A stretch of DNA of 32,000 bases from Gammaproteobacteria bacterium (GCA_965279305.1 OZ257143.1:1830001-1862000); one strand, 5' to 3'; shown: positions 3,960 through 23,724, counted from the first letter of the stretch. Notes: generated by a model from the letters alone, not told the origin. Numbers and translations are program-made.

Positions 3960-5306
3960 CTAGACCTCTTTAGATTCAAAATGCTGTTTCCAGGCTTCTA
4001 GCTCCTGTTGGCTAATACCTATTCCTGCAATAGTATGAGGCGCCAACTCAGATAAATCTTTTTTCACATCTTTCATGAATTGTTGCCGATCAGTCGTAGG
4101 AATTATTTCATTGGTACGTTGATTAATTAAAATAGATATATTGGGCTCATAAATAAGATTGCGTACAATTTCAGCAAGCAATTGCCTGCGTTCAGTCCGA
4201 TAAAATACACGCACAGGGTCAATACCCAACGCTTGTGCCGCTACCGTATAATGTTTACAGCTACGTAAATAAGACCAGCAATAGAGTTCAGATAAGGGGG
4301 TGACATCATTTAGCTCGTATATCACTAACATCGCTGAAATATAATCATCTTTACTAATATCATTAAACGAAAGTGGTACAAGATTATGTTGTACTAAGGG
4401 AATATTGGCTGCAAGCCGTGCAGTACGTTTATTAACATCAATAAAGGCTTGCAAATAAGAAAGATGTACTAAAAGAAAAAAGCTTTGTTCAAACGGATCA
4501 TGAATTTGACTCGCTTTACTTGCTATTTCTTCCATTAATCGCGTTAATTTTTGTACATTTTCTATTGGAACATAAGTAGTTGCCGAAATTCGCACTGCAT
4601 CTGTCCTTACTTGACCAGGCGCTCCAGGATGAACTAAGCCATCTGATAGAATATAATGCAAAGACCGAATATTATTCAAATTAATTTCTATCCGATTAAT
4701 ACCTTCAACCAGAAATTTGATCGCCTCCTTATGATTCAAAATCATAATGCTTTCAGCATCCATTTTATCAATAGCCAATTTTCCTTCAAAAATTAATTTT
4801 TCTGTTTCTAATAGAGAATAGGTGTTTCCTTCTAATCTTGATGAGTTGTACGATAAGTCAATCAGCAGTCGATTGAAAATCTTATGCGCATAGGTACCCG
4901 CAGGAAGTTCCTGACTAAGCCGTTTGCCATTTTCATAAAGTTCCTTGCGTTGTGCTGCATTTAAGTAAAATGTTTGATTAGGAATATAAGCATTCAACCA
5001 TTCTTCATGATAAGAACAAGGCTGACGTTGCATCAATGGAGCGCGTACTTGTGAAAGCAAACCCACACTTTTTTCAGTAAAGATAGGATGTTTATCCTCT
5101 GTAAGTGGGGTTCTCACTCGATACACGCTGTACTTTCTTCCCTTGTTTTTCCCTGTTTTTTTTATAGCACCGTCCTGCACCAATTGTGATAACCAGCGAC
5201 TCAGGGTGCGATCAGACACGGATAAATGTTTTTTTAGAACTGCCAGCGAAACCGGTTCCGAGTAGTTTTCCAGTATGCTCAGCAGGATTTGTTGGTTTGT
5301 TGACAT
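3960..5306 (-). CDS. HTH-Fic family protein with a non-canonical (probably catalytically altered) Fic motif
   Basis: 448-aa ORF. The N-terminus looks like a winged HTH (SLAVLKKHLSVSDRTLSRWLSQLVQDGAIKK). An inhibitory-helix motif [ST]xxxE[GN] is present as SSRLEG (aa 155-160). The Fic core position reads LQAFIDVNKRTARL (aa 285-298, nt 4416-4451) against the canonical HPFx[DE]GNGRxxR. Confidence 0.8.
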   Translation of the reverse strand: MSTNQQILLSILENYSEPVSLAVLKKHLSVSDRTLSRWLSQLVQDGAIKKTGKNKGRKYSVYRVRTPLTEDKHPIFTEKSVGLLSQVRAPLMQRQPCSYHEEWLNAYIPNQTFYLNAAQRKELYENGKRLSQELPAGTYAHKIFNRLLIDLSYNSSRLEGNTYSLLETEKLIFEGKLAIDKMDAESIMILNHKEAIKFLVEGINRIEINLNNIRSLHYILSDGLVHPGAPGQVRTDAVRISATTYVPIENVQKLTRLMEEIASKASQIHDPFEQSFFLLVHLSYLQAFIDVNKRTARLAANIPLVQHNLVPLSFNDISKDDYISAMLVIYELNDVTPLSELYCWSYLRSCKHYTVAAQALGIDPVRVFYRTERRQLLAEIVRNLIYEPNISILINQRTNEIIPTTDRQQFMKDVKKDLSELAPHTIAGIGISQQELEAWKQHFESKEV

Positions 5307-5310
5307 ATGC

Positions 5311-5404
5311 TTATATCGGCCATTTTGTGATTATATCAGCCAATTATAGTGATATATCAGCCATAAATCAAATATATCAGCCATTTTTTACATTATATCG
5401 GCCA
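5311..5404. repeat. Five direct 12-bp repeats (WTATATCRGCCA) spaced alternately 20 and 21 bp apart; iteron/operator-like array
   Basis: Read directly from the sequence: ttatatcggcca 5311-5322, ttatatcagcca 5331-5342, atatatcagcca 5352-5363, atatatcagcca 5372-5383, ttatatcggcca 5393-5404. The array ends 5 nt upstream of the Fic gene start codon (5306, minus strand). Confidence 0.9.
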
Positions 5405-5438
5405 CACACTGATTAAAAAAGTAGTATCTATCGACCAT

Positions 5439-5466
5439 TTGACAATAAAAAGCCCGCTGATATAGT
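5439..5466 (+). promoter_or_regulatory. Putative sigma70-type promoter for doxX (TTGACA-16 nt-TATAGT)
   Basis: TTGACA at 5439-5444 and TATAGT at 5461-5466. An AAGGGA Shine-Dalgarno lies 4 nt before ATG 5489. Confidence 0.5.
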
Positions 5467-5488
5467 TAATTTAACTATAAGGGACTAT

Positions 5489-5938
5489 ATGACACACACG
5501 CTCTCTCACCTGCTCTTTCTGGTTTTCCATTTTTTAGAAACATTCTGCGCACCGGTTTTACAGCTGATTATCCGCTTATGGATGGCCAATATTTTTTGGA
5601 ATGCAGGCGTTGTGAAAATTTCTGATTGGCAAACCACCCTAGCGCTTTTCCAACAAGAATATAAAGTGCCTTTTATTCAACCCGATGTGGCGGCCTATTT
5701 AGCTGCCATGACCGAGCTTACCTGCCCTGTTTTACTGGTATTAGGCATTGCCACGCGGATAGCCACGATTCCTATGATGATAATGATCCTGGTCATACAG
5801 TTCACCTATCTGAATAGCGATGAACACCTTTATTGGCTGATGTTACTGGGCACTCTACTTTGTTTTGGCCCTGGGCGCTTATCCTTCGATTATTTGTTAA
5901 AACGGCGTAATGATCCTTATTTCACTCAAAAACCTTAA
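5489..5938 (+). CDS. DoxX family inner-membrane protein
   Basis: 149-aa ORF with about four hydrophobic helices. The segment LIIRLWMANIFWNAGVVKI...LAAMTELTCPVLLVLGIATRIATIPMMIMILV follows the typical DoxX pattern. Confidence 0.7.
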   Translation: MTHTLSHLLFLVFHFLETFCAPVLQLIIRLWMANIFWNAGVVKISDWQTTLALFQQEYKVPFIQPDVAAYLAAMTELTCPVLLVLGIATRIATIPMMIMILVIQFTYLNSDEHLYWLMLLGTLLCFGPGRLSFDYLLKRRNDPYFTQKP

Positions 5939-5966
5939 GATTGCCTTATCTTAAATAAGTCGTATA

Positions 5967-6911
5967 ATGACTGCCATGAGCACATCCTTACATCTAGCTT
6001 TTACTCGCGATGAATGGCGTCATTTTCGCTCTGACGTTCCTCTTGCGCTAACAGAATCAGAGCTCGCCGCATTACGTGGCTTTAACGATAAAATATCACT
6101 AGAAGAAGCTGCCGATATTTACTTGCCTTTAGCGCGCCTGATTAACGAATATGTAGGTGCTGCCCAAGAACTCTATAAAGCCAGCAGCCATTTTTTAGGA
6201 ACCGATGTACCTAAAGTGCCTTATATTATTGGTGTAGCAGGCAGTGTGGCGGTAGGCAAAAGTACTACCTCACGTATTTTACAGGCTTTACTTTCTCGTT
6301 GGCCTAATTCACCTCGCGTTGATTGGGTTACCACCGATGGATTTTTATATCCTAATGCGGTTCTAGAAGAAAAAGGACTGATGGAAAAAAAAGGTTTTCC
6401 TCAAAGTTTTGATAGAGCTCGTTTTTTAGATTTTTTAATGGCAGTGAAATCAGGTGAAAAAAAGGTTCAGATCCCTATTTATTCTCATGAACAATACGAT
6501 ATCGTTCCAAATGAATATAAAAACATTAGCCAACCTGATATTTTAATTGTAGAAGGCTTAAATATTTTACAAACCGCACTGGTGAATAAAAAACCTCATC
6601 CTCAAATTTTTATTTCTGATCTTATTGATTTTTCCATTTATGTAGATGCCGATATTAAAACTATTGAAAAATGGTATTTAGATCGTTTTATGGCTTTTCG
6701 TGAATTAGCTAAAAACAAACCCGAATTATTTTTCCATCAGTTTTCAACATGGCCAGATGAAAAAGCCCTAGATTTTGCCAAAAATATTTGGAAAACCATT
6801 AATGAAAAAAACCTACTAGAAAATATTTTACCTTTCAAATATCGTGCTCGTCTTATTTTAGAAAAATCCACCAATCATAAAATTGAAAAAGTATTTCTGA
6901 GACGTTTATAA
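5967..6911 (+). CDS. coaA: Type I pantothenate kinase
   Basis: 314 aa. It appears collinear with E. coli CoaA as I recall it: [29 protein letters not shown] (P-loop), [39 protein letters not shown]. Confidence 0.92.
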
Positions 6912-6913
6912 TC

Positions 6914-8506
6914 ATGGCTTATCATCACACCGACGTATTAATTATTGGAAGTGGCGCTGCTGGCTTAAGCGTAGCTTTACAGCTATCCCCTTCTATTAAA
7001 GCAACTTTAGTTTGCAAAGATGAATTAGGCGAAGGAAGCACTTACTATGCACAAGGTGGTGTTGCTGCTGTGATGGCTGAAGAAGATACTTTAGACTCTC
7101 ACGTTGAAGATACATTAGTGGCAGGCGCAGGATTATGCGATCTAAAAACAGCAGCCTTTACCGTTGAACATGCAAAAGAATGTATTCAATGGTTAGTGGA
7201 TATGGGCGTAACATTTACACCCAGCACCGATCCACATGCCTCTATTCCTTTTCATTTAGGCCAAGAAGGCGGACACAGCCATAGAAGAATTATTCATGCA
7301 GCCGATTCTACTGGGCAAGCTATTTCTCAAATACTGATTGCACAATTACGAAAAAGAAAAAATGTAAAAATTCATGAAAACGCAATGGCTGTTGATTTAA
7401 TTACACAGCAGGGCCAATGTAAAGGCGCTTATATCTACAATGATAAAACCAGAAACATTGATACTATCAGAGCCAAAGTAGTGGTACTTGCCACAGGTGG
7501 TGCTAGCAAAGTATATTTATATTCCACTAATCCTAATGTATCTAGCGGTGATGGAATTGCTATGGCATGGCGCGCGGGTTGCCGTGTTGCTAACATGGAA
7601 TTTAATCAATTTCATCCTACTTGTTTATATCATCCTAAAGCTAAAACATTATTACTCACCGAAGCGATCCGTGGTGAAGGTGGAAAACTTCGATTGCCCG
7701 ATGGCAGCACTTTTATGGAACGTTTTGATCCACGCGCTGAATTAGCACCTCGCGATATTGTTGCACGTGCGATTGATCATGAAATAAAACGCTTAGGGAT
7801 CCCTTGTGTTTATTTAGATATTAGCCACAAACCTGCTGAGTTTATCAAAGAACATTTCCCTATGCTTTATGAACGTTGTAAAGAATATGGTTTTGATATG
7901 ACTAAAGAACCATTACCTGTCGTTCCTGCTGCTCATTATACGTGTGGTGGCGTAGTTACCGATTTAAATGGCAATACCGATATCAAAAATCTTTATGCTA
8001 TTGGTGAAGTAGCCTATACCGGATTGCATGGCGCAAATCGCATGGCAAGTAATTCGATTTTAGAATGCTTAGTTTTTGCTAATAGTGCCTCCAAACATAT
8101 TAATAATTCTATTAATACTATTGAAGAAGCCGCTCAACTACCCGAATGGGATGCTAGCCAAGTTACCGATTCTGACGAAGAAGTAGTAGTTTCTCACAAC
8201 TGGGAAGAACTCAGACGATTTATGTGGAACTACGTAGGTATTGTAAGAACCAATAAACGTTTAGAAAGAGCGCAGCATCGAGTGGAATTATTAAAGCGCG
8301 AAATTCATGAGTATTACAGTAGCTTTCAGCTGACTCCCAATTTAATTGAATTACGTAATTTAGTATTAGTCGCCGATCTTATTATAAAATCGGCAATATC
8401 GCGCAAAGAAAGCCGTGGCCTGCATTTTAATTTAGATTACCCTTGTGCTTCTGATACTTGTTTGCATCCTACGATTTTAAGTAAAACTCACTCTAAGCAA
8501 GAATAA
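6914..8506 (+). CDS. nadB: L-aspartate oxidase
   Basis: 530 aa. FAD-binding N-terminus [13 protein letters not shown], then [31 protein letters not shown] and RGEGG, all typical of NadB. Confidence 0.92.
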
Positions 8507-8571
8507 AAAATCTCTTTACTTTAAACCGTAACCTATTTAGAATTTAATAATAGTTTAATTTTGGAAACAGT

Positions 8572-8856
8572 ATGTCAACCGATTCAAAAAAAATTGATTC
8601 AGAAATAACCGAGTCAGGCCGCTTAGCTCGCTTAAAATGGCGATGCCGACGAGGTATGAAAGAGCTCGATTTATTCTTAATTCCTTTTATTAACTCTAAT
8701 ATCAGTTCTCTTACAACTAGCGATATTGAAACTTTAGAGATAATGCTAGAAGAACCCGATCCTGATTTATACAGCTGGTTGGCCGGTTACTGCTGCCCTC
8801 TTAACGCGGAATGGGAAGCCATGTGCGAGAAAATTCGTGTACAGCATTACGCCTAA
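8572..8856 (+). CDS. sdhE: FAD assembly factor SdhE (YgfY/CptB family)
   Basis: 94 aa. RLKWRCRRGMKELDLFL matches the RGxxE SdhE signature. A ygfX-like gene follows, as in enterobacteria. Confidence 0.85.
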   Translation: MSTDSKKIDSEITESGRLARLKWRCRRGMKELDLFLIPFINSNISSLTTSDIETLEIMLEEPDPDLYSWLAGYCCPLNAEWEAMCEKIRVQHYA

Positions 8857-9325
8857 TTTGATTATTACTGTTCCTCGTTCCCGTTATTTAACGATAAGCC
8901 TTTTATTCTGCACTATCGGTTCTTTTTTTATCATCTACTCTTTATCTCTGAATATCTTAACTAAACTGGCTATTGCTTTAATCGTATTGATTTACAGTGC
9001 ATATTTGTACCTTCACCATATTCGTTCAGAACTACCCTATTCATGTGTTAAAATACAATTATTACAAAAAGTAGAATGGATGCTACAATTAAGTAATGGA
9101 AAAATCGATTCAGGCATTTTACGAGCAGATACTTATGTATCTTCATGGTTAATTATTTTTCGCTTTCAAACGAGAAAACCATGGCCATTTAATAAAATAA
9201 GCATTCTATTGTTTGCGAAAGAAGTTGATTCAGAACTCTGGAGAAAACTCAATATTTACTTACGCTGGCAAGCTCAAAAATATTTAAACCCAACAATATT
9301 AATAGATAACGAGAAATCAAAATGA
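8837..9325 (+). CDS. YgfX/CptA-like small membrane protein
   Basis: 162-aa ORF with two N-terminal TM helices and a C-terminal segment (DSELWRKLNIYLRW) resembling YgfX. It sits immediately after sdhE. Only GTG (8837) or TTG starts are available, so the start is uncertain. Confidence 0.6.
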   Translation: MYSITPNLIITVPRSRYLTISLLFCTIGSFFIIYSLSLNILTKLAIALIVLIYSAYLYLHHIRSELPYSCVKIQLLQKVEWMLQLSNGKIDSGILRADTYVSSWLIIFRFQTRKPWPFNKISILLFAKEVDSELWRKLNIYLRWQAQKYLNPTILIDNEKSK

Positions 9326-10221
9326 ATACTGTTGCACCCATAAGCCATTATACCTTAATAAAAATTCACGGCGATCAGGCACAAGAATTCTTGCAAGGGC
9401 AATTAACCTGTGATGTAAAAAAAATTGGTACTAACCATTATTCTCTCACCGCTTATTGCGATGCCAAAGGCAGAATGTGGAGCATAGCTCGCTTATTTCA
9501 AATCCAAGATGATTATTTTCTTTTTTTACCAGTTGAGGTAGCAGAAGAAACCGCCAATGATTTAAATAAATACGCAAAATTTTCTAAAGTAAGCGTGAGT
9601 ATTGAACCAAATTATTCCGCTTTATTAGTTCATTCTAATGAATTATCAAACCTATTAAATAAAACCTTGCCTGATAAAGCCTATGAATATTCCCAGCTAA
9701 ATGATGTGACTATTTTATATTTACAGGTTAATTCTTATTTGGTTATTGGCAATAAAAAAGCCATCAGCGAATTAGAAGATAAATTAGCAAAAACAGATCA
9801 TCTACATCTTCCCACATCTGCATGGGATTTATCCGAAATACAAATGGCAATTCCTACGGTATGGAAAGAAACATTAGGTGAATTATTACCTCATGAAGTG
9901 AATTTACCTGAGCTCAATGGCGTAAGCTTTACCAAAGGTTGTTATAAAGGCCAAGAAATTATTGCCCGCATGCAATATAGAGGTCAGCGCAAAAAACATA
10001 TGTATCAAGCTCATTTCGGCGGAAACGAATTACCACTTCCAGGCTCTGTGATTACCGACGAAGAACAAAAGAAAGTAGGCGAAGTAGTATCCGCCGCACC
10101 CAATTTATCAGGAACATTCGAGCTATTAGCCGTCTTATCTAACGCTGCTATCGATGAAAAGAAAGAGCTATTACTCAATGGTAATAGATTAACTCAAATA
10201 ATTTTAGATGTTAATTTTTAG
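9322..10221 (+). CDS. ygfZ: Folate-binding Fe-S cluster repair/tRNA-modification protein YgfZ
   Basis: 299 aa. Carries the signature KGCYKGQEIIARMQYRG (KGCYxGQE). Its start overlaps the upstream stop as ATGA. Confidence 0.88.
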   Translation: MNTVAPISHYTLIKIHGDQAQEFLQGQLTCDVKKIGTNHYSLTAYCDAKGRMWSIARLFQIQDDYFLFLPVEVAEETANDLNKYAKFSKVSVSIEPNYSALLVHSNELSNLLNKTLPDKAYEYSQLNDVTILYLQVNSYLVIGNKKAISELEDKLAKTDHLHLPTSAWDLSEIQMAIPTVWKETLGELLPHEVNLPELNGVSFTKGCYKGQEIIARMQYRGQRKKHMYQAHFGGNELPLPGSVITDEEQKKVGEVVSAAPNLSGTFELLAVLSNAAIDEKKELLLNGNRLTQIILDVNF

Positions 10222-10366
10222 TATCAGGTTTTTTTATTAGCTCTTCCCTAAATAAAGAAGATGCACTATAATACTATTAAATTAAGAATAAATTAATTTG
10301 ATTTGTATTGTAAACCATAGTAGAGTTCTATAGTAGTTCCTCTAAAAATGTAAAAAGGAAATCTAT

Positions 10367-19304: not shown

Positions 19305-19312
19305 TATTATCT

Positions 19313-19353
19313 CGTCATTGCGAGCTTGCGAAGCAAGCGTGGCAATCCACATC
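19313..19353 (+). repeat. GC-rich palindromic (REP/MITE-like) element, copy 1
   Basis: cgtcattgcgagcttgcgaagcaagcgtggcaatccacatc. Inner hairpin GCTTGC-gaa-GCAAGC and outer ATTGC/GCAAT pairing. It starts 8 nt after the rapZ stop. A second copy lies inverted at 22471-22513. Confidence 0.85.
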
Positions 19354-19441
19354 AAAAAATAGTATATTCAGTAAACTATCAGGTTGGGATGGGTAGGTAA
19401 TTCGCCAAGAGCCGCATCTTGTTGAGTCTTGGTAAAATATT

Positions 19442-19744
19442 TTAGGCGGCTTTTGAGGAGATGGGTTTAATCCAAGAGAGTCCTTTTCCTGTGTGTTCAA
19501 TTTCCCACAAATCGTAAGCACTTTGCATGCGTAGCAATACCGCAGGATCCACTCTCAATAAGCGCCCTAACTTTGCCGCTAAATCTGGAGTTAAACGTAA
19601 TCTTTCATTTAAAATACCTGATAAGGTATTGCGAGATACATCAATACGCTTGCTAATTTCTTGCTGGGTTAACTCTACCGCAGGCAAAATGATAATTCTT
19701 AAAAAAGCTCCTGGATGAGTGGGCTTTCTATTACTGGGCTTCAT
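19442..19744 (-). CDS. HigA/VapI-family XRE-type HTH protein (antitoxin-like, no cognate toxin gene seen)
   Basis: 100 aa. THPGAFLRIIILPAVELTQQEISKRIDVSRNTLSGILNERLRLTPDLAAKLGRLL...LLRMQSAYDLW follows the HigA pattern HPGE.L...L...G.SQ..LA..LGVSR..IS.I.NG.R.IT.D.A.RL...F.......WL.LQ..YDL. Confidence 0.8.
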   Translation of the reverse strand: MKPSNRKPTHPGAFLRIIILPAVELTQQEISKRIDVSRNTLSGILNERLRLTPDLAAKLGRLLRVDPAVLLRMQSAYDLWEIEHTGKGLSWIKPISSKAA

Positions 19745-19776
19745 TAGTGATAATCCTCTAAATCAATTATGATAAA

Positions 19777-19815
19777 ACTATACTGCCATTTATTGAAATG
19801 TGTCAACTTTTGACA
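19777..19815 (-). promoter_or_regulatory. Putative higA-like promoter (TTGACA-18 nt-TATAGT) with a perfect 6-3-6 inverted repeat over the -35
   Basis: The minus strand reads TGTCAAaagTTGACA (plus-strand coordinates 19801-19815), an 18-nt spacer, then TATAGT (19777-19782). A GAGGA Shine-Dalgarno lies 9 nt before ATG 19744. Confidence 0.5.
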
Positions 19816-19880
19816 TGCAAAAATACTGATCATATCAGAATCTTCCGACCAGACCCCGTCATTTTTCTCCTGAAAGATCT

Positions 19881-19925
19881 CTTTCTTTTCCCCATAGTGG
19901 GAGGAGAAAAAAGCGGGGTGACAGA
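19881..19925 (+). repeat. Second short repeat family, copy A (pyrimidine/purine hairpin followed by GGGGTGACA)
   Basis: ctttcttttccccatagtgggaggagaaaaaagcggggtgacaga resembles 22383-22427 cttttcttttatagtttttttggtaaagaaaaaagaagggtgaca in the same orientation. Aligned by eye: the 3' half matches at 17 of 21 positions. Confidence 0.5.
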
Positions 19926-19949
19926 TTAAGCTTTTGTAAATGTTTTAAA

Positions 19950-20670
19950 TTAGGGTGGTGGTCGCCTTATTACAAATGGATTTGGTTTTGGGGCTGGTCG
20001 ATTAAAGTTTTTATCGACAAGAGCTCCTGCTTCCTTTCCTTCCAACGCAGATTCATCATTGGTAAACGCTACGATCTTACGATTTAATTCATAAGGAAGC
20101 ATCCAGAAAAAACCCGTATTAGTAGTAAGCGATTGATAAACCATACGAGCATTTTTTATAACTTCCCCCCTATTCCTAATCTTATTCCGTGAAATCTCAC
20201 CAATAACCTCTCGTCTTGTTGGTTTATTCAATGCAGGGGGATATACGGGGCATAATAATCTTATGTCAGGCAAACTAGATTCCCATCCAACACATTGCTC
20301 AAATACACGTTCATCACGCATAATAAAATTAACAATCACTCTCGCTTGTTTTGGAAATTGCTGTAACACTTCCGTCAGTTCTATACCAGTGACATTGTTA
20401 ATAAGACGTTTAAATTCACCTTTGACGCGAAGAAGGATCCGAATAGCCTGTGGTGCATAGTTAGGAGTAAGACACCCTAATGCGCATAGATCGTAATGAT
20501 CCTTAATGATACGTTTAAATTCTGGAATATTATTAACGAGAAGATGAGTAAGAGGGCCAAAGATATTGTGGGAACCTTTGTTTTACAACATAGAAATCTG
20601 TATAGGATTTAAAAAGAGATTGAAAAGCACAGAGATTGCTTAAAGCTTCTTGTATGTCTTGTTCTTTCAT
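19950..20670 (-). pseudogene. Frameshifted gene for an LPYEL-motif, proline-tailed protein (paralogous motif to the neighbouring F-box protein)
   Basis: ATG 20670 has a strong GAGGAG Shine-Dalgarno and opens a 45-codon frame (MKEQDIQEALSNLCAFQSLFKSYTDFYVVKQ...) that stops at 20533-20535. A second frame is open from 20582 down to the stop at 19950; it contains the 139-aa track ORF, which has no ATG start of its own. The two frames overlap over 20536-20582, and the total length of 721 nt equals 3n+1. Confidence 0.55.
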
Positions 20671-20784
20671 AATGGATACTCCTCGTTATTATTAAAGGGA
20701 CAACTTGAGTGTTCCATAAAATTAAAATAAAAACAAGCCACTTTTTTATAAAGCGATTAAAAAAATTCAATAAGGTTTTATTTA

Positions 20785-21660
20785 TTAGCTGGGGTTGGGG
20801 CCATATAAATAGTTAGATGACGGAGGTGCAGGAGAAGTCGCTCGAAGTTCACCTGGAGGAGAAGGTGGTGGTTTTGGAAATTCACTTTCAAGAGCGGCCT
20901 TTTGTTCTGCAGTTAAATCGATGATGTCTTGAATGGTGCGCTTCTTCTCTATAACTAAATGTCCCCAATCTGTGATATTGAAAAACTGTATCATGTTGAG
21001 ATCTTTAATTTGATCAAATGACAACACTCTACTTTTCATCAATGCGTGAATGTTTTCGTTATTAAAATTAGAAGATTGAGTACCTTTTAAATCGCTAATT
21101 TGCTTAAAGCACACTATTCCAGCGATTAGCATTCCTCGAAGCACTGAATTATCAATATGAAGTCCTGAATCCCAGCTTAAATTCTTAGCATCTGGCAGTG
21201 AGAGTATTCCGCTCGCAACAAAAGCCTTAATAGTGTGTAATCTCAGAGGCTCTTTACCATCAGGAAAATTTCTCCTTCTAAGTTCTTGTTCAATTTCTGC
21301 AAGAATGCGTCTTTCCTCTTCAGTTATTTGACCCCGCATAATTCTTGAAACAGAATCATTAGAAGTACCTGAAAGGACTTGTTCAAGAACCGTAAAAGCA
21401 CGCTCCCACCCTTCTTGACCAAGAGTGCGATATAAAATCAGTCTTTTTTCACGTTCGTTTTTATATAATGCTATAACATCATTTAATGGTATTGTTCTGT
21501 ATTCTGGTAATAAACGATCTCGATAAATTAAAGTATCCTCGCTAAGCGCTCTATGTGCTCTTGATACTTGAGCCAAACGACCACGTTCTTTATCGCCTAA
21601 ATATAAACGTACTATTCTTAGAGCAAGTTCATAAGGCAAATTTCCGATAAGACCTGTCAT
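20785..21660 (-). CDS. F-box domain protein with internal ~31-aa repeats and a proline-rich C-terminus; candidate eukaryotic-like effector
   Basis: 291 aa. N-terminal LPYELALRIVRLYLGDKERGRLAQVSRAHRALSED fits the F-box consensus LPdEil.kIl.yLd.kdL.rlr.VSKrWr.L with one extra residue. It has three to four degenerate repeats (GILSLPDAKNL / GIVCFKQISDLKG / SRVLSFDQIKDLN / RTIQDIIDLT). The tail reads PKPPPSPPGELRATSPAPPSSNYLYGPNPS. Confidence 0.7.
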   Translation of the reverse strand: MTGLIGNLPYELALRIVRLYLGDKERGRLAQVSRAHRALSEDTLIYRDRLLPEYRTIPLNDVIALYKNEREKRLILYRTLGQEGWERAFTVLEQVLSGTSNDSVSRIMRGQITEEERRILAEIEQELRRRNFPDGKEPLRLHTIKAFVASGILSLPDAKNLSWDSGLHIDNSVLRGMLIAGIVCFKQISDLKGTQSSNFNNENIHALMKSRVLSFDQIKDLNMIQFFNITDWGHLVIEKKRTIQDIIDLTAEQKAALESEFPKPPPSPPGELRATSPAPPSSNYLYGPNPS

Positions 21661-21890
21661 TTGAGTACCTTTAAACGATATAAATTAACAGCGCCCATTT
21701 TAAGCTATTTAAATAAATAATTCAAATTCGCCCCTTAAGTGGGCACTTACATGAACCACGCCCCGCTAAATCGACCACTGAGAAACAAGGAGGGTGTCGC
21801 GTAACAGGAAGATTATTTTCTGAGTTTGGCCTATAATAGCTTATCTGCGCCATTAAACGTTAATGTTGTATTAGGGACAAAGAGACGATA

Positions 21891-22130
21891 ATGAGTCCAA
21901 CAGTTTTTAAGTCAGGTTCATATAGATTTTACTTTTTTTCTAGGGAAGAGCCTAGAAAACATGTACATGTTACATGTCCAGATGGGGAGGCAAAGTTTTG
22001 GATAGAGCCTATTGTTTCTTTAGCCACGTCTACTGGCTTATCAAAGAAACAACTAAAAGAAATTCAATCATTAGTGGAGAGTCATATCGATGAAATTAGC
22101 AAAGCGTGGAAAAAGCATTTCGGCAATTGA
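21891..22130 (+). CDS. DUF4160 family small protein
   Basis: 79 aa. GSYRFYFFSREEPRKHVHVTCPDGEAKFWIEP matches the DUF4160 pattern (YRFFFYS.E..EPPH.HV......AKFW..P). Confidence 0.75.
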   Translation: MSPTVFKSGSYRFYFFSREEPRKHVHVTCPDGEAKFWIEPIVSLATSTGLSKKQLKEIQSLVESHIDEISKAWKKHFGN

Positions 22131-22347
22131 TATCAATCTCACACAGTTTGGTATGTGGTTATGCTTATCTGATGAAGAATTCTTTTTATCCTATGAAGAC
22201 TATCCTTTCTTCAAAACAGCCAAAGTCAACGATATTTATCAGGTTGAACTACATCACAAAAATCATCTCTATTGGCCTAATTTGGATGTAGATTTGAGTG
22301 TGGATATTTTAAAAAATCCGCATCACTTCCCCTTATTAGCACATTGA
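22090..22347 (+). CDS. DUF2442 family small protein (partner of DUF4160)
   Basis: 85 aa. LCLSDEEFFLSYEDYPFFKTAKVNDIYQVELHHKNHLYWPNLDVDLSVDIL fits the DUF2442 pattern (fP.L..A......n.e.....g.hWp.LDvDlsv..L). It overlaps the upstream gene by 41 nt, so the start is uncertain. Confidence 0.7.
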   Translation: MKLAKRGKSISAIDINLTQFGMWLCLSDEEFFLSYEDYPFFKTAKVNDIYQVELHHKNHLYWPNLDVDLSVDILKNPHHFPLLAH

Positions 22348-22382
22348 TGCATGTTTCAAACCAATTTTTAGATAGAACCGTA

Positions 22383-22427
22383 CTTTTCTTTTATAGTTTT
22401 TTTGGTAAAGAAAAAAGAAGGGTGACA
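22383..22427 (+). repeat. Second short repeat family, copy B
   Basis: See 19881-19925. cttttcttttatagtttttttggtaaagaaaaaagaagggtgaca. Confidence 0.5.
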
Positions 22428-22450
22428 CACGGAGCATAATCAATCTAATA

Positions 22451-22562
22451 AGGCTTTTCTGAATCATTTTGGATGTGGATTGCCGCGGCCGCTACGCGGC
22501 CTCGCAATGACGGAAAAGGTTTTCTGAATCATTTTAGAAATAAAGGGTTTCCGAATCGTTTT
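22451..22562. repeat. Three ~20-bp direct repeats (AGGYTTTCYGAATCRTTTT) in the dacC 3' region, the first two split by the palindromic element
   Basis: aggcttttctgaatcatttt 22451-22470; aggttttctgaatcatttt 22517-22535; agggtttccgaatcgtttt 22544-22562. The last copy overlaps the dacC stop codon. Confidence 0.8.
22471..22513 (-). repeat. GC-rich palindromic (REP/MITE-like) element, copy 2 (inverted relative to copy 1)
   Basis: The reverse complement reads ccgtcattgcgaggccgcgtagcggccgcggcaatccacatcc. It shares the arms cgtcattgcgag and ggcaatccacatc with copy 1. Its inner hairpin is GGCCGC-gta-GCGGCC. Confidence 0.85.
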
Positions 22563-23724
22563 AGTTCATGGAGAGGCGGAAACGATCGGAGACTACGCGT
22601 AGCCATCCACCCTTTTTAGCAGGTTCTAACGCGACTAGAGGCTTCTGATCAATCACTTTCTTATCTAGTTTCACTTCCACATTCCCGCACTGCTGCTTCT
22701 CAGCCACGGGCGCCTTCATACCATTATTCACATGAAACTCAAAATCCAGATTATCAAACTCACCCTTAGGCACCGTCACATACCAATCATCCGGCACGCC
22801 TACTTCAATACGCTTCTTATCCCCCATCCAAATACGCGCCTTACTCACAGGTGTATAAGCATCTTGCAACTTACGGGTTTCATAATATTCAAAACCGTAG
22901 TCTAATAACTCTTGGCTTTGCTGAGTACGCGCTTTTACGCTCTTAGAACCCAGCACAACCGCAATCAAGCGCATATCGTCACGTTTAGCAGATGATGCCA
23001 AGCAAAACTTAGCCGCGCGCGTATAGCCCGTTTTAATGCCATCTACGCTATCATCCCACCACAACAATAAATTCGGATTACTTTTTCTCACACCTTTATA
23101 CGTAAATGATTTTTTAGAATACTTAGGATAGGTTTCAGGAAAATCATTAATTAAAGCTCTAGCCAAAATAGCCAAATCCCGTGCACTACTATAATGATTG
23201 TCTTCGGTTAAACCATGAGGATTAGCAAAGCGGGTATTTTTCATGCCTAAGCGCCTAGCTTCACGATTCATTCTATTTACAAATTCATCTTCGCTGCCGG
23301 AAATAAATTCGGCTAGCGCCACGCTGGCATCATTCGCTGATTGAACTGAAACGCCATACACTAAATCTTCTACGGTAGGTTCATTGGTAGGTTTATGAAA
23401 CATACGCACCCGTTCAACGCGCACGGCATTGTTAGTGATAGGAACGCGTTGGTTCTTTTTAATTCTGCCCGCTTTAATTTCTTGATCGACAATATAGGCG
23501 GTCATCATTTTAGTAATGCTAGCAGGATGAAGACGTTTGTCAGGATTTTGCTCGGCAAGCACGATGCCAGAATTAGCATCCACTAAAATATAGGAATACA
23601 CATCAAAACGAGGTGCAGGAGGAACTTGATAGATTTCGTGCGCAGATGCAAAGCACGTAGATAAGGAAAAAGTGAAAAGCAATAATAAGCGAAAGCAAAG
23701 ACGTTTCATTATCACGGCAGACAT
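22561..23724 (-). CDS. dacC: D-alanyl-D-alanine carboxypeptidase (PBP5/6 class)
   Basis: 387 aa. Signal peptide, SxxK (ASITKMMT), SxN (QSANDAS), KTG (IKTGYT), and a C-terminal amphipathic anchor. The true start may be the ATG at 23709 (MKRLCFRLLLLF). Confidence 0.88.
   Translation of the reverse strand: MSAVIMKRLCFRLLLLFTFSLSTCFASAHEIYQVPPAPRFDVYSYILVDANSGIVLAEQNPDKRLHPASITKMMTAYIVDQEIKAGRIKKNQRVPITNNAVRVERVRMFHKPTNEPTVEDLVYGVSVQSANDASVALAEFISGSEDEFVNRMNREARRLGMKNTRFANPHGLTEDNHYSSARDLAILARALINDFPETYPKYSKKSFTYKGVRKSNPNLLLWWDDSVDGIKTGYTRAAKFCLASSAKRDDMRLIAVVLGSKSVKARTQQSQELLDYGFEYYETRKLQDAYTPVSKARIWMGDKKRIEVGVPDDWYVTVPKGEFDNLDFEFHVNNGMKAPVAEKQQCGNVEVKLDKKVIDQKPLVALEPAKKGGWLRVVSDRFRLSMN

Follow-up and report, generated by a model that had tools for sequence, protein, structure and literature searches.

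The ~3.2-kb segment at positions 19313-22562 of a 32-kb stretch of DNA from a Gammaproteobacteria bacterium (GCA_965279305.1 OZ257143.1:1830001-1862000; hereafter the window, from strain W) is a strain-variable accessory patch between two conserved operons, and is bordered by an inverted pair of palindromes. In the explanation that we favour, with a probability of about 0.68, the cargo of this segment is swapped mainly by recombination through the flanking genes, and the border palindromes are ordinary CGTC-tagged repetitive extragenic palindromes (REPs) and not the borders of a mobile unit. The cargo, consisting of an orphan higA gene, a dhiTA-like pair and two fast-evolving F-box-like genes, would turn over by gain, loss and replacement between closely related genomes. 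This would happen mainly by homologous recombination with DNA of related strains, by way of the conserved genes of the flanks, and small indels and rearrangements at local repeats would contribute in addition. The REPs would mark the junctions but define no mobile unit. Given their position and the literature on the family, they most likely form part of the rapZ and dacC mRNAs as 3'-end hairpins, which would stabilise these transcripts or set their ends. The behaviour of the locus is that of an ordinary core-flanked hotspot, and its border element comes from a known family.

The left flank of the segment is the kdsD-kdsC-lptC-lptA-lptB-hpf-rapZ operon, in which rapZ (18459-19304, plus strand; Pfam RapZ-like_N and PapZ_C) is the last gene. 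The right flank consists of a gene for a dacC-like D-Ala-D-Ala carboxypeptidase (22561-23724, minus strand; Peptidase_S11/PBP5, assigned with Pfam and NCBIfam) and the alpha and spc ribosomal-protein operons, ending in rplQ. The junction was compared in relatives whose contigs were reached via RapZ homologues, and in two much closer ones, designated B and C, which were reached via cluster look-ups. The convergent rapZ and rplQ genes are the conserved frame of the locus, being kept in B, C and five more distant relatives, and the content of the junction ranges from nothing to 7.7 kb of cargo. Among the five distant loci, the space between rapZ and rplQ holds one 211-aa gene and dacC in L006 (RapZ 83% identical), a pentapeptide protein and four unknown genes but no dacC in L007 (73%), nothing in the JGI 3300050821 contig (73%), where rapZ and rplQ are 59 nt apart, HPr, ABC protein, hybrid kinase and other genes in L008 (70%), and genes for a kinase and a nonribosomal peptide synthetase in L010 (69%). 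The dacC gene is kept at the junction in W, B, C and L006, and is absent there in the relatives with 69-73% RapZ identity. Hence, dacC itself is older cargo.

The two close relatives differ from W and from each other. Relative B (94-96% DNA identity to W) has the REP at both borders, the right copy being identical and the left copy 9 nt shorter. Its left REP is followed, after 10 nt, by a smaller repeat of this lineage (repeat 2, described below) in reverse orientation, and no higA occurs before the contig ends; the dhiTA-like pair is the same as in W. Relative C (94-97% DNA identity to W) has no REP at either border. In C, the C-terminus of RapZ differs, and homology to W ends at 19297, inside the last codons, as judged by the ends of the blastn blocks. 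A 380-aa gene follows rapZ in C, and a 347-aa gene replaces the dhiTA-like pair. The F-box gene and the gene with an LPYEL motif are common to W and C (88.7% DNA identity), and the junctions of C carry repeat 2 and a double hairpin of the form CACCTCTCC..GGAGAGGT-hairpin-GGTGAGGGG. The REP was also absent from all five distant loci. An earlier note on this DNA had taken the locus for a recombination-prone cradle in which small palindromic elements help cargo to turn over, and had proposed that the junction be aligned across relatives to see whether cargo varies while the elements persist. The cargo indeed varies, but the elements do not persist throughout, as the REP is kept in B and missing from C and the five distant loci. 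A close relative with the same genes at the locus but without the elements, which the same note had named as an observation that would speak against the cradle, was not encountered.

A signal of exchange was found in the gene that adjoins the segment on the left. Over ~4 kb of the left flank, the informative sites that join B to C outnumber those that join it to W by 172 to 40, whereas in the last ~380 nt of rapZ (18920-19300) the majority is reversed, 24-27 sites joining B to W and 17 joining it to C (Fisher p about 6e-7). This flip in grouping matches the rapZ end and the REP that W and B have in common. The synonymous divergence (dS) of rapZ, 0.44, is the highest among the flanking genes, the others having values of 0.05-0.21. 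The mosaic 3' end of rapZ therefore points to exchange of the segment by homologous recombination through the flanking core genes. Foreign composition of the segment was rejected, as its GC content and GC content at third codon positions (GC3) are those of the flanks (GC3 of 0.30 vs 0.31, p = 0.98); the codon-usage fit to the flanks is somewhat lower for its genes (p = 0.01). The flank-like composition fits exchange among relatives rather than recent import of foreign DNA, and the match in GC and GC3 is one half of the second counter-observation that had been put forward in advance with the cradle proposal.

The locus shares with known core-flanked gain/loss hotspots the same flanking core genes around differing content, small cargo rich in toxin-antitoxin modules, the lack of an integrase, and signs of recombination in a flanking gene. 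It departs from them in nothing essential, apart from the poorly known lineage and the presence of F-box-like genes in the cargo. A classical genomic island or integrative element was rejected, since there is no tRNA gene in the window, no integrase or transposase was found among the open reading frames (ORFs) scanned with Pfam (3960-13916 and 18459-23724), and GC and GC3 are as in the flanks. The description of the segment as accessory but not a classical island, given in the earlier note, therefore holds.

The border palindrome is a 41-nt element with one copy at 19313-19353 (plus strand) and one at 22472-22512 (minus strand). The inverted pair (19313-19358/22467-22512) is the longest inverted repeat of the window, and the conserved halves of the element, CGTCATTGCGAG and GGCAATCCACATC, each occur exactly twice in the window, both times at these borders. 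The left copy begins 8 nt past the rapZ stop (ORF end 19304), and the head of the right copy, on the minus strand, lies 48 nt past the dacC stop (22561). Both are sense-oriented with respect to their own adjoining core gene, each facing the convergent neighbour, so the inverted pair with the same orientation relative to the adjacent core gene is as first described. The left copy is composed of a CGTC head, an ATTGC/GCAAT outer stem, a GCTTGC-GAA-GCAAGC inner hairpin, and a CCA tail followed by CATC. In the fold of both copies, a small internal loop separates a 5-bp ATTGC/GCAAT outer stem from a 6-bp inner stem, which is closed by a 3-nt GNA loop. The inner stems (GCTTGC-GAA-GCAAGC vs GGCCGC-GTA-GCGGCC) differ in three base pairs, all of them compensated, and the perfect identity shared by the two copies extends over only 12-13 nt. 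Rfam gave no family at gathering score in the whole window, and none at E values up to 10 around the left border copy.

CGTC-tagged REPs were defined by Di Nocera, De Gregorio and Rocco (BMC Genomics 2013; PMC3733652). Elements of this type have an unpaired CGTC or TGTC (also CCTC) head, a stem that starts with two A-T pairs, and a CCA tail; they are repeated many times in the host genome, lie mostly in the intergenic space between convergent or unidirectional genes, within ~20 bp downstream of an ORF, and have no linked transposase (PMC3733652). The superfamily includes Neisseria dRS3 and Rickettsia conorii RPE-4 and RPE-6 (PMC3733652). In W, CGTC starts both copies, the ATTGC...GCAAT stem stands directly behind it with A-T pairs at its first two positions, and both copies end in GCAAT-CCA-CATC. 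The self-complementary stem is heterogeneous, as in the published family, both copies are located 8 and 48 nt behind ORF stops at a convergent junction, and no transposase domain was found among the scanned ORFs. Given the CGTC head, the AT-start stem, the CCA tail, the placement behind ORFs and the lack of a transposase, the border element is, on its sequence features, a CGTC-tagged REP, already described and very widespread, in a longer variant with a composite hairpin. In the published elements a single stem of 8-9 bp carries a loop of 4-5 nt, and the total length is 20-40 bp. The hairpin here is composite, with stems of 5 and 6 bp on either side of an internal loop and three nucleotides, GAA or GTA, in the terminal loop; a conserved CATC follows the CCA tail, and the element has 41 nt in all. 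The published elements are also mostly from Alphaproteobacteria, while the host here is a gammaproteobacterium with ~39% GC. Head-to-head dimers are the predominant form of CGTC REPs (PMC3733652), but both copies here are single. As the family normally adjoins the 3' ends of ORFs, the placement of the element behind rapZ and dacC does not make it a special border. The palindrome as a special border marker was not supported, because the element belongs to a known family and because C and the distant relatives vary in cargo without the REP, and the support for the cradle does not go beyond a coincidence of position. The alternative offered at the time, namely 3' hairpins with cargo that arrived independently, is the better fit of the two.

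Small hairpin repeats mixed with short motifs in 3' intergenic DNA, with proposed transcript-stabilising roles, are also known as Escherichia coli-type REPs and bacterial interspersed mosaic elements (BIMEs), and the patchwork of repeats after dacC resembles such a mosaic element. The head is CGTC here and GTAG there, and there is no gene for a REP-associated tyrosine transposase (RAYT; Y1 transposase) in the window. The only Y1_Tnp match, a short fragment, came from the contig of a distant relative, L009.

Copies of the element were sought in public sequence. A scan of the viral collection with the pattern GTCATTGCGAG-N(10-24)-GCAATCC gave at least 120 stretches, from which 172 copies of the frame GTCATTGCGAG...GCAATCC were extracted, 156 of them non-redundant; some loci held 4 to 9. 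In 144 of the 156 non-redundant copies, GTC is preceded by C or T. While the frame is constant, the inner segment, of 10-24 nt, is highly variable and was found in 131 different versions. A longer pattern with a CCAYATC tail matched at least 120 metagenome stretches, mostly GC-rich soil contigs, against a chance expectation, by our own estimate, of ~0.1 match. The CCAYATC-tailed copies in the GC-rich soil contigs (L136-L255) are mostly arranged as tail-to-tail pairs 12-16 nt apart (...GCAATCCATATC-N-ATGGATTGC...). No target-site duplication was found around the public copies in general, the longest shared flank word being 5.1 nt vs 4.5 in controls. A full-text literature search for GTCATTGCGAG returned only unrelated primers.

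A second pair of repeats, in direct orientation, lies inside the segment. The core of repeat 2, GAAAAAAGCGGGGTGACAG, is found at 19906-19924 and recurs with three mismatches (16/19 nt) at 22410-22428, where no such copy was expected from 100 shuffles; the pair reported in the earlier note is therefore real, although over its full 45 nt the alignment contains gaps and reaches an identity of only 75%. The left copy (19853-19924, plus strand) is an imperfect hairpin of ~70 nt with the core in its 3' arm (DNA fold -19.1 kcal/mol, z = -4.8). The right copy (22383-22428, plus strand) is degenerate, consisting of a pyrimidine arm, ATAG, a purine arm and then GGGTGACA, with a weak fold (z = -1.3), and is conserved in relative B. 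Repeat 2 was not found in the viral collection, nor in any fetched locus outside this lineage. An intrinsic terminator was rejected for repeat 2 as it was for the REP, since no T-run follows and neither was picked by the terminator scan.

The arrangement of repeat 2 invites an explanation of the segment as a remnant of a mobile element or an integron-like cassette array, in which the repeats would be what remains of attachment or attC-like sites after loss of the integrase. Its direct copies bracket a 2.5-kb block that contains the LPYEL gene, the F-box gene and the dhiTA-like pair, and its imperfect ~70-nt hairpin is like many cassette recombination sites. Toxin-antitoxin modules, which are typical cargo of mobile elements and chromosomal cassette arrays, are among the genes of the segment. 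We nevertheless consider a remnant very improbable. Besides the lack of a tRNA gene and of an integrase or transposase within the ranges given above, the genes point both ways, the composition is that of the flanks, and repeat 2 is restricted to this lineage among the loci fetched and absent from the viral collection. Furthermore, the block between the repeats is not a unit, as C has kept the F-box and LPYEL genes but has another gene in place of the dhiTA-like pair. An integron array in particular was rejected, since there is no IntI, the genes are in both orientations, and the junction word ATTAAGC/GCTTAAT departs from the RYYYAAC/GTTRRRY core consensus.

Other small repeats crowd the same junctions. 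A unit designated u (AAAACATTTACAAAAGCTTAAT) is located at 19925-19949 (minus strand), right after the stop of the LPYEL gene, as read from the sequence and the blastn ends. Downstream of dacC, a mosaic on the minus strand (22450-22563) comprises u3 (22450-22470), the right REP (22472-22512), u2 (22518-22537) and u1 (22544-22563), of which u1 overlaps the dacC stop. Such tandem units (AAAAYGATTYRGAAAAGC) stand directly after the dacC stop three times in W, twice in B (L135, 640-722) and once in C (L132, 5139-5165); the counts of W and B differ by a 27-nt indel that leaves B without u2. In C, u1 alone follows dacC, and then come repeat 2 and another hairpin repeat. In L006, u units flank a 225-nt insert of other palindromes downstream of dacC (2495-2800), where a ~130-nt palindrome resembling a miniature inverted-repeat transposable element (2555-2690) has inverted ends of ~23 nt (GAGATTCTGGTGCAGGTAGG...). 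Small palindromic inserts have accumulated at this spot downstream of dacC in W, B, C and L006, and they differ from genome to genome. A 16-nt direct repeat, AAAATGATTCAGAAAA, around the right REP was considered as a target-site duplication and rejected, since B has the same REP without the second unit. The AAAATGATTCAGAAAA motif is a local tandem unit, present also in L006 and C.

The double hairpin seen at the junctions of C, CACCTCTCC-N-GGAGAGGT-(variable hairpin)-GGTGAGGGG, represents a second family of tiny repeats that, like the CGTC REP, has a constant frame and a variable, compensated hairpin. It sits at the junctions of the corresponding segments of relatives (L132, 5198-5258 and 8153-8178; L006, 2690-2745, reverse) and is widespread, occurring in 31 stretches of the viral collection (including L256-L285), one of which, L068, also carries a CGTC REP.

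Several observations weigh against exchange through the flanks combined with ordinary REPs. No clear mosaic signal was found in the right flank. No T-run follows either REP copy, and the terminator scan picked neither. The public copies show no sense bias relative to ORFs (45 sense vs 49 antisense, with ORF calling being crude in GC-rich DNA), and the REP copies examined in the genome of W itself number only two, both within the window. Finally, the breakpoints of synteny between W, B and C fall exactly at small repeats.

The last of these observations is what would be expected if the CGTC REP, repeat 2, the u units and the CACCTCTCC double hairpin actively promoted cargo turnover without a dedicated recombinase, modules being swapped at cassette junctions by short homologies or by hairpin-induced breaks or template switches. 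The homology blocks shared by W, B and C stop precisely, to the base, at the edges of repeats. The block of W and C with the LPYEL and F-box genes ends exactly at the AAGCTTAAT end of the u unit, where repeat 2 follows in W and the CACCTCTCC hairpin in C; the dacC block ends in unit u1, and W and B diverge right after the left REP. An identical stretch of 32/32 nt (repeat 2 plus ATTAAG) adjoins dacC in C and the LPYEL gene in W, in a setting where the neighbouring genes are 89-97% identical, and the palindromic inserts downstream of dacC differ between W, B, C and L006. REPs have also been reported as targets for insertion sequence elements in several genera (background of PMC3733652). An active role of the repeats is nonetheless unlikely in our judgement. 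Cargo varies too in relatives with none of these elements, and the 12-13 nt of perfect identity between the REP copies is too short for RecA-type exchange. Gene junctions are intergenic by definition and small repeats accumulate there anyway, so a coincidence of repeats with breakpoints is to be expected. The public copies lack target-site duplications in general, the apparent 16-nt duplication at the right copy comes down to the 27-nt indel of a local tandem unit that is missing in B, and exchange by way of the flanking genes is evident from the mosaic in rapZ.

Every module junction of the segment is occupied by tiny hairpins, which belong to at least three unrelated families, namely the CGTC REP, the lineage-specific repeat 2 and u unit, and the CACCTCTCC double hairpin. 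A more far-reaching proposal is a recombinase-free cassette exchange, in which breaks or template switches at the hairpin repeats would reshuffle modules of toxin-antitoxin and effector genes within a fixed chromosomal landing pad; this we hold to be quite improbable. Recombination through the flanking genes remains the preferred explanation, within which the repeats may contribute to the breakpoints.

The gene content first described for the segment (an orphan HigA-like helix-turn-helix protein, a frameshifted LPYEL gene, an F-box protein and a DUF4160/DUF2442 pair) was confirmed by Pfam, NCBIfam and translations. The F-box-like genes among them are eukaryote-like, as the earlier note had it. 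The gene nearest rapZ (19442-19744, minus strand) encodes a HigA-family antitoxin, which scores 78.2 bits with TIGR02607 (cut-off 47.7) and also matches HTH_3. The score lies above the cut-off, as for the antitoxins of higBA type II systems, but there is no HigB partner, as a HigB-sized ORF is absent from the ORF list for the 200 nt upstream, and the antitoxin gene is hence an orphan. No protein at 90% identity or more was found elsewhere in the collection. A promoter scan identified a near-consensus sigma-70-like site (19806-19777, minus strand; TTGACA, 18 nt, TATAGT; 11/12) in front of higA, between it and the repeat 2 hairpin.

The LPYEL gene (19950-20670, minus strand), which is F-box/PRANC-like, is split over two reading frames at GTTGTAAAACAAAGG (about 20583-20597), as judged by translations. 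The LPYEL motif is at the C-terminus, and the match to PRANC is weak and comes from the copy in relative C. The same +1 frame break at GTTGTAAAACAAAGG is found in W and C (L132, 7401-8121; 89% identical here). In both, the downstream frame is open for 210 codons, including 71 without a start codon, with a dN/dS (ratio of nonsynonymous to synonymous divergence) of 0.37. A sequencing error was therefore rejected as the source of the break, and the gene could use a conserved +1 frameshift, be truncated or dead, or be slowly decaying. No homologues of this family were found outside the lineage.

The adjacent gene (20785-21660, minus strand) encodes an F-box-like protein of 291 aa (PF12937, 28.7 bits vs a gathering score of 24.3). 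The proteins of W and C are only 73% identical, with a dN/dS of 0.61, as compared with 97-100% and 0.02-0.04 for core proteins. Only 19 remote relatives, some with F-box domains, were found among 1.84 billion representative proteins. The last cargo genes (21891-22347, plus strand) form an overlapping pair, DUF4160 (21891-22130) and DUF2442 (22090-22347), both above their Pfam cut-offs and with the toxin gene first. This pair is a putative toxin-antitoxin module of the dhiTA type, as suggested by its domains and gene order. The dhiTA system (DUF4160/DUF2442) of Dickeya dadantii has been experimentally tested as a toxin-antitoxin system (PMC8198452), and likewise has the DUF4160 gene first and an overlapping DUF2442 gene. 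However, the NCBIfam DhiT equivalog model is matched only weakly (19.9 bits vs 100), far from its cut-off.

The DNA comes from an uncultured gammaproteobacterium that has a small and AT-rich genome and whose closest named relatives are only ~70% identical in SecY and ~54% in RapZ. This bacterium is apparently host-associated, a lifestyle that is fitted by the ankyrin-repeat and Fic genes elsewhere in the window. These accessory-looking genes encode a 506-aa ankyrin-repeat protein (10367-11887, plus strand), which has no counterpart at that position in L007, and a Fic-domain protein with a winged helix (3960-5306, minus strand). A further accessory-looking region (12714-14680, plus strand) has a gene for a type III polyketide synthase, followed by a putative methyltransferase gene, so named after a 94%-identical gene in relative C (L131). 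No CGTC REP was seen at the borders of the ankyrin, Fic or polyketide synthase genes. Within the left operon (17362-19304), hpf directly follows lptB and rapZ follows hpf. Neither rpoN nor ptsN intervenes, and rapZ is not followed by an HPr gene. Unlike W, L008 (70% RapZ identity) has ptsN-like and HPr genes around rapZ (7031-8924).

The spread of CGTC REPs without a known transposase has been an open question since the family was described (PMC3733652), and this locus does not resolve it. It does extend CGTC-type REPs, in a longer, composite-hairpin form, to a low-GC gammaproteobacterial lineage. The segment is also a small, clean example of how genes of the effector-like (F-box) and toxin-antitoxin kinds turn over at one constant junction with no integrase. 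Its three closely related alleles, in which the REP is present, shortened by 9 nt or absent, are usable for studying how such elements are gained and lost.

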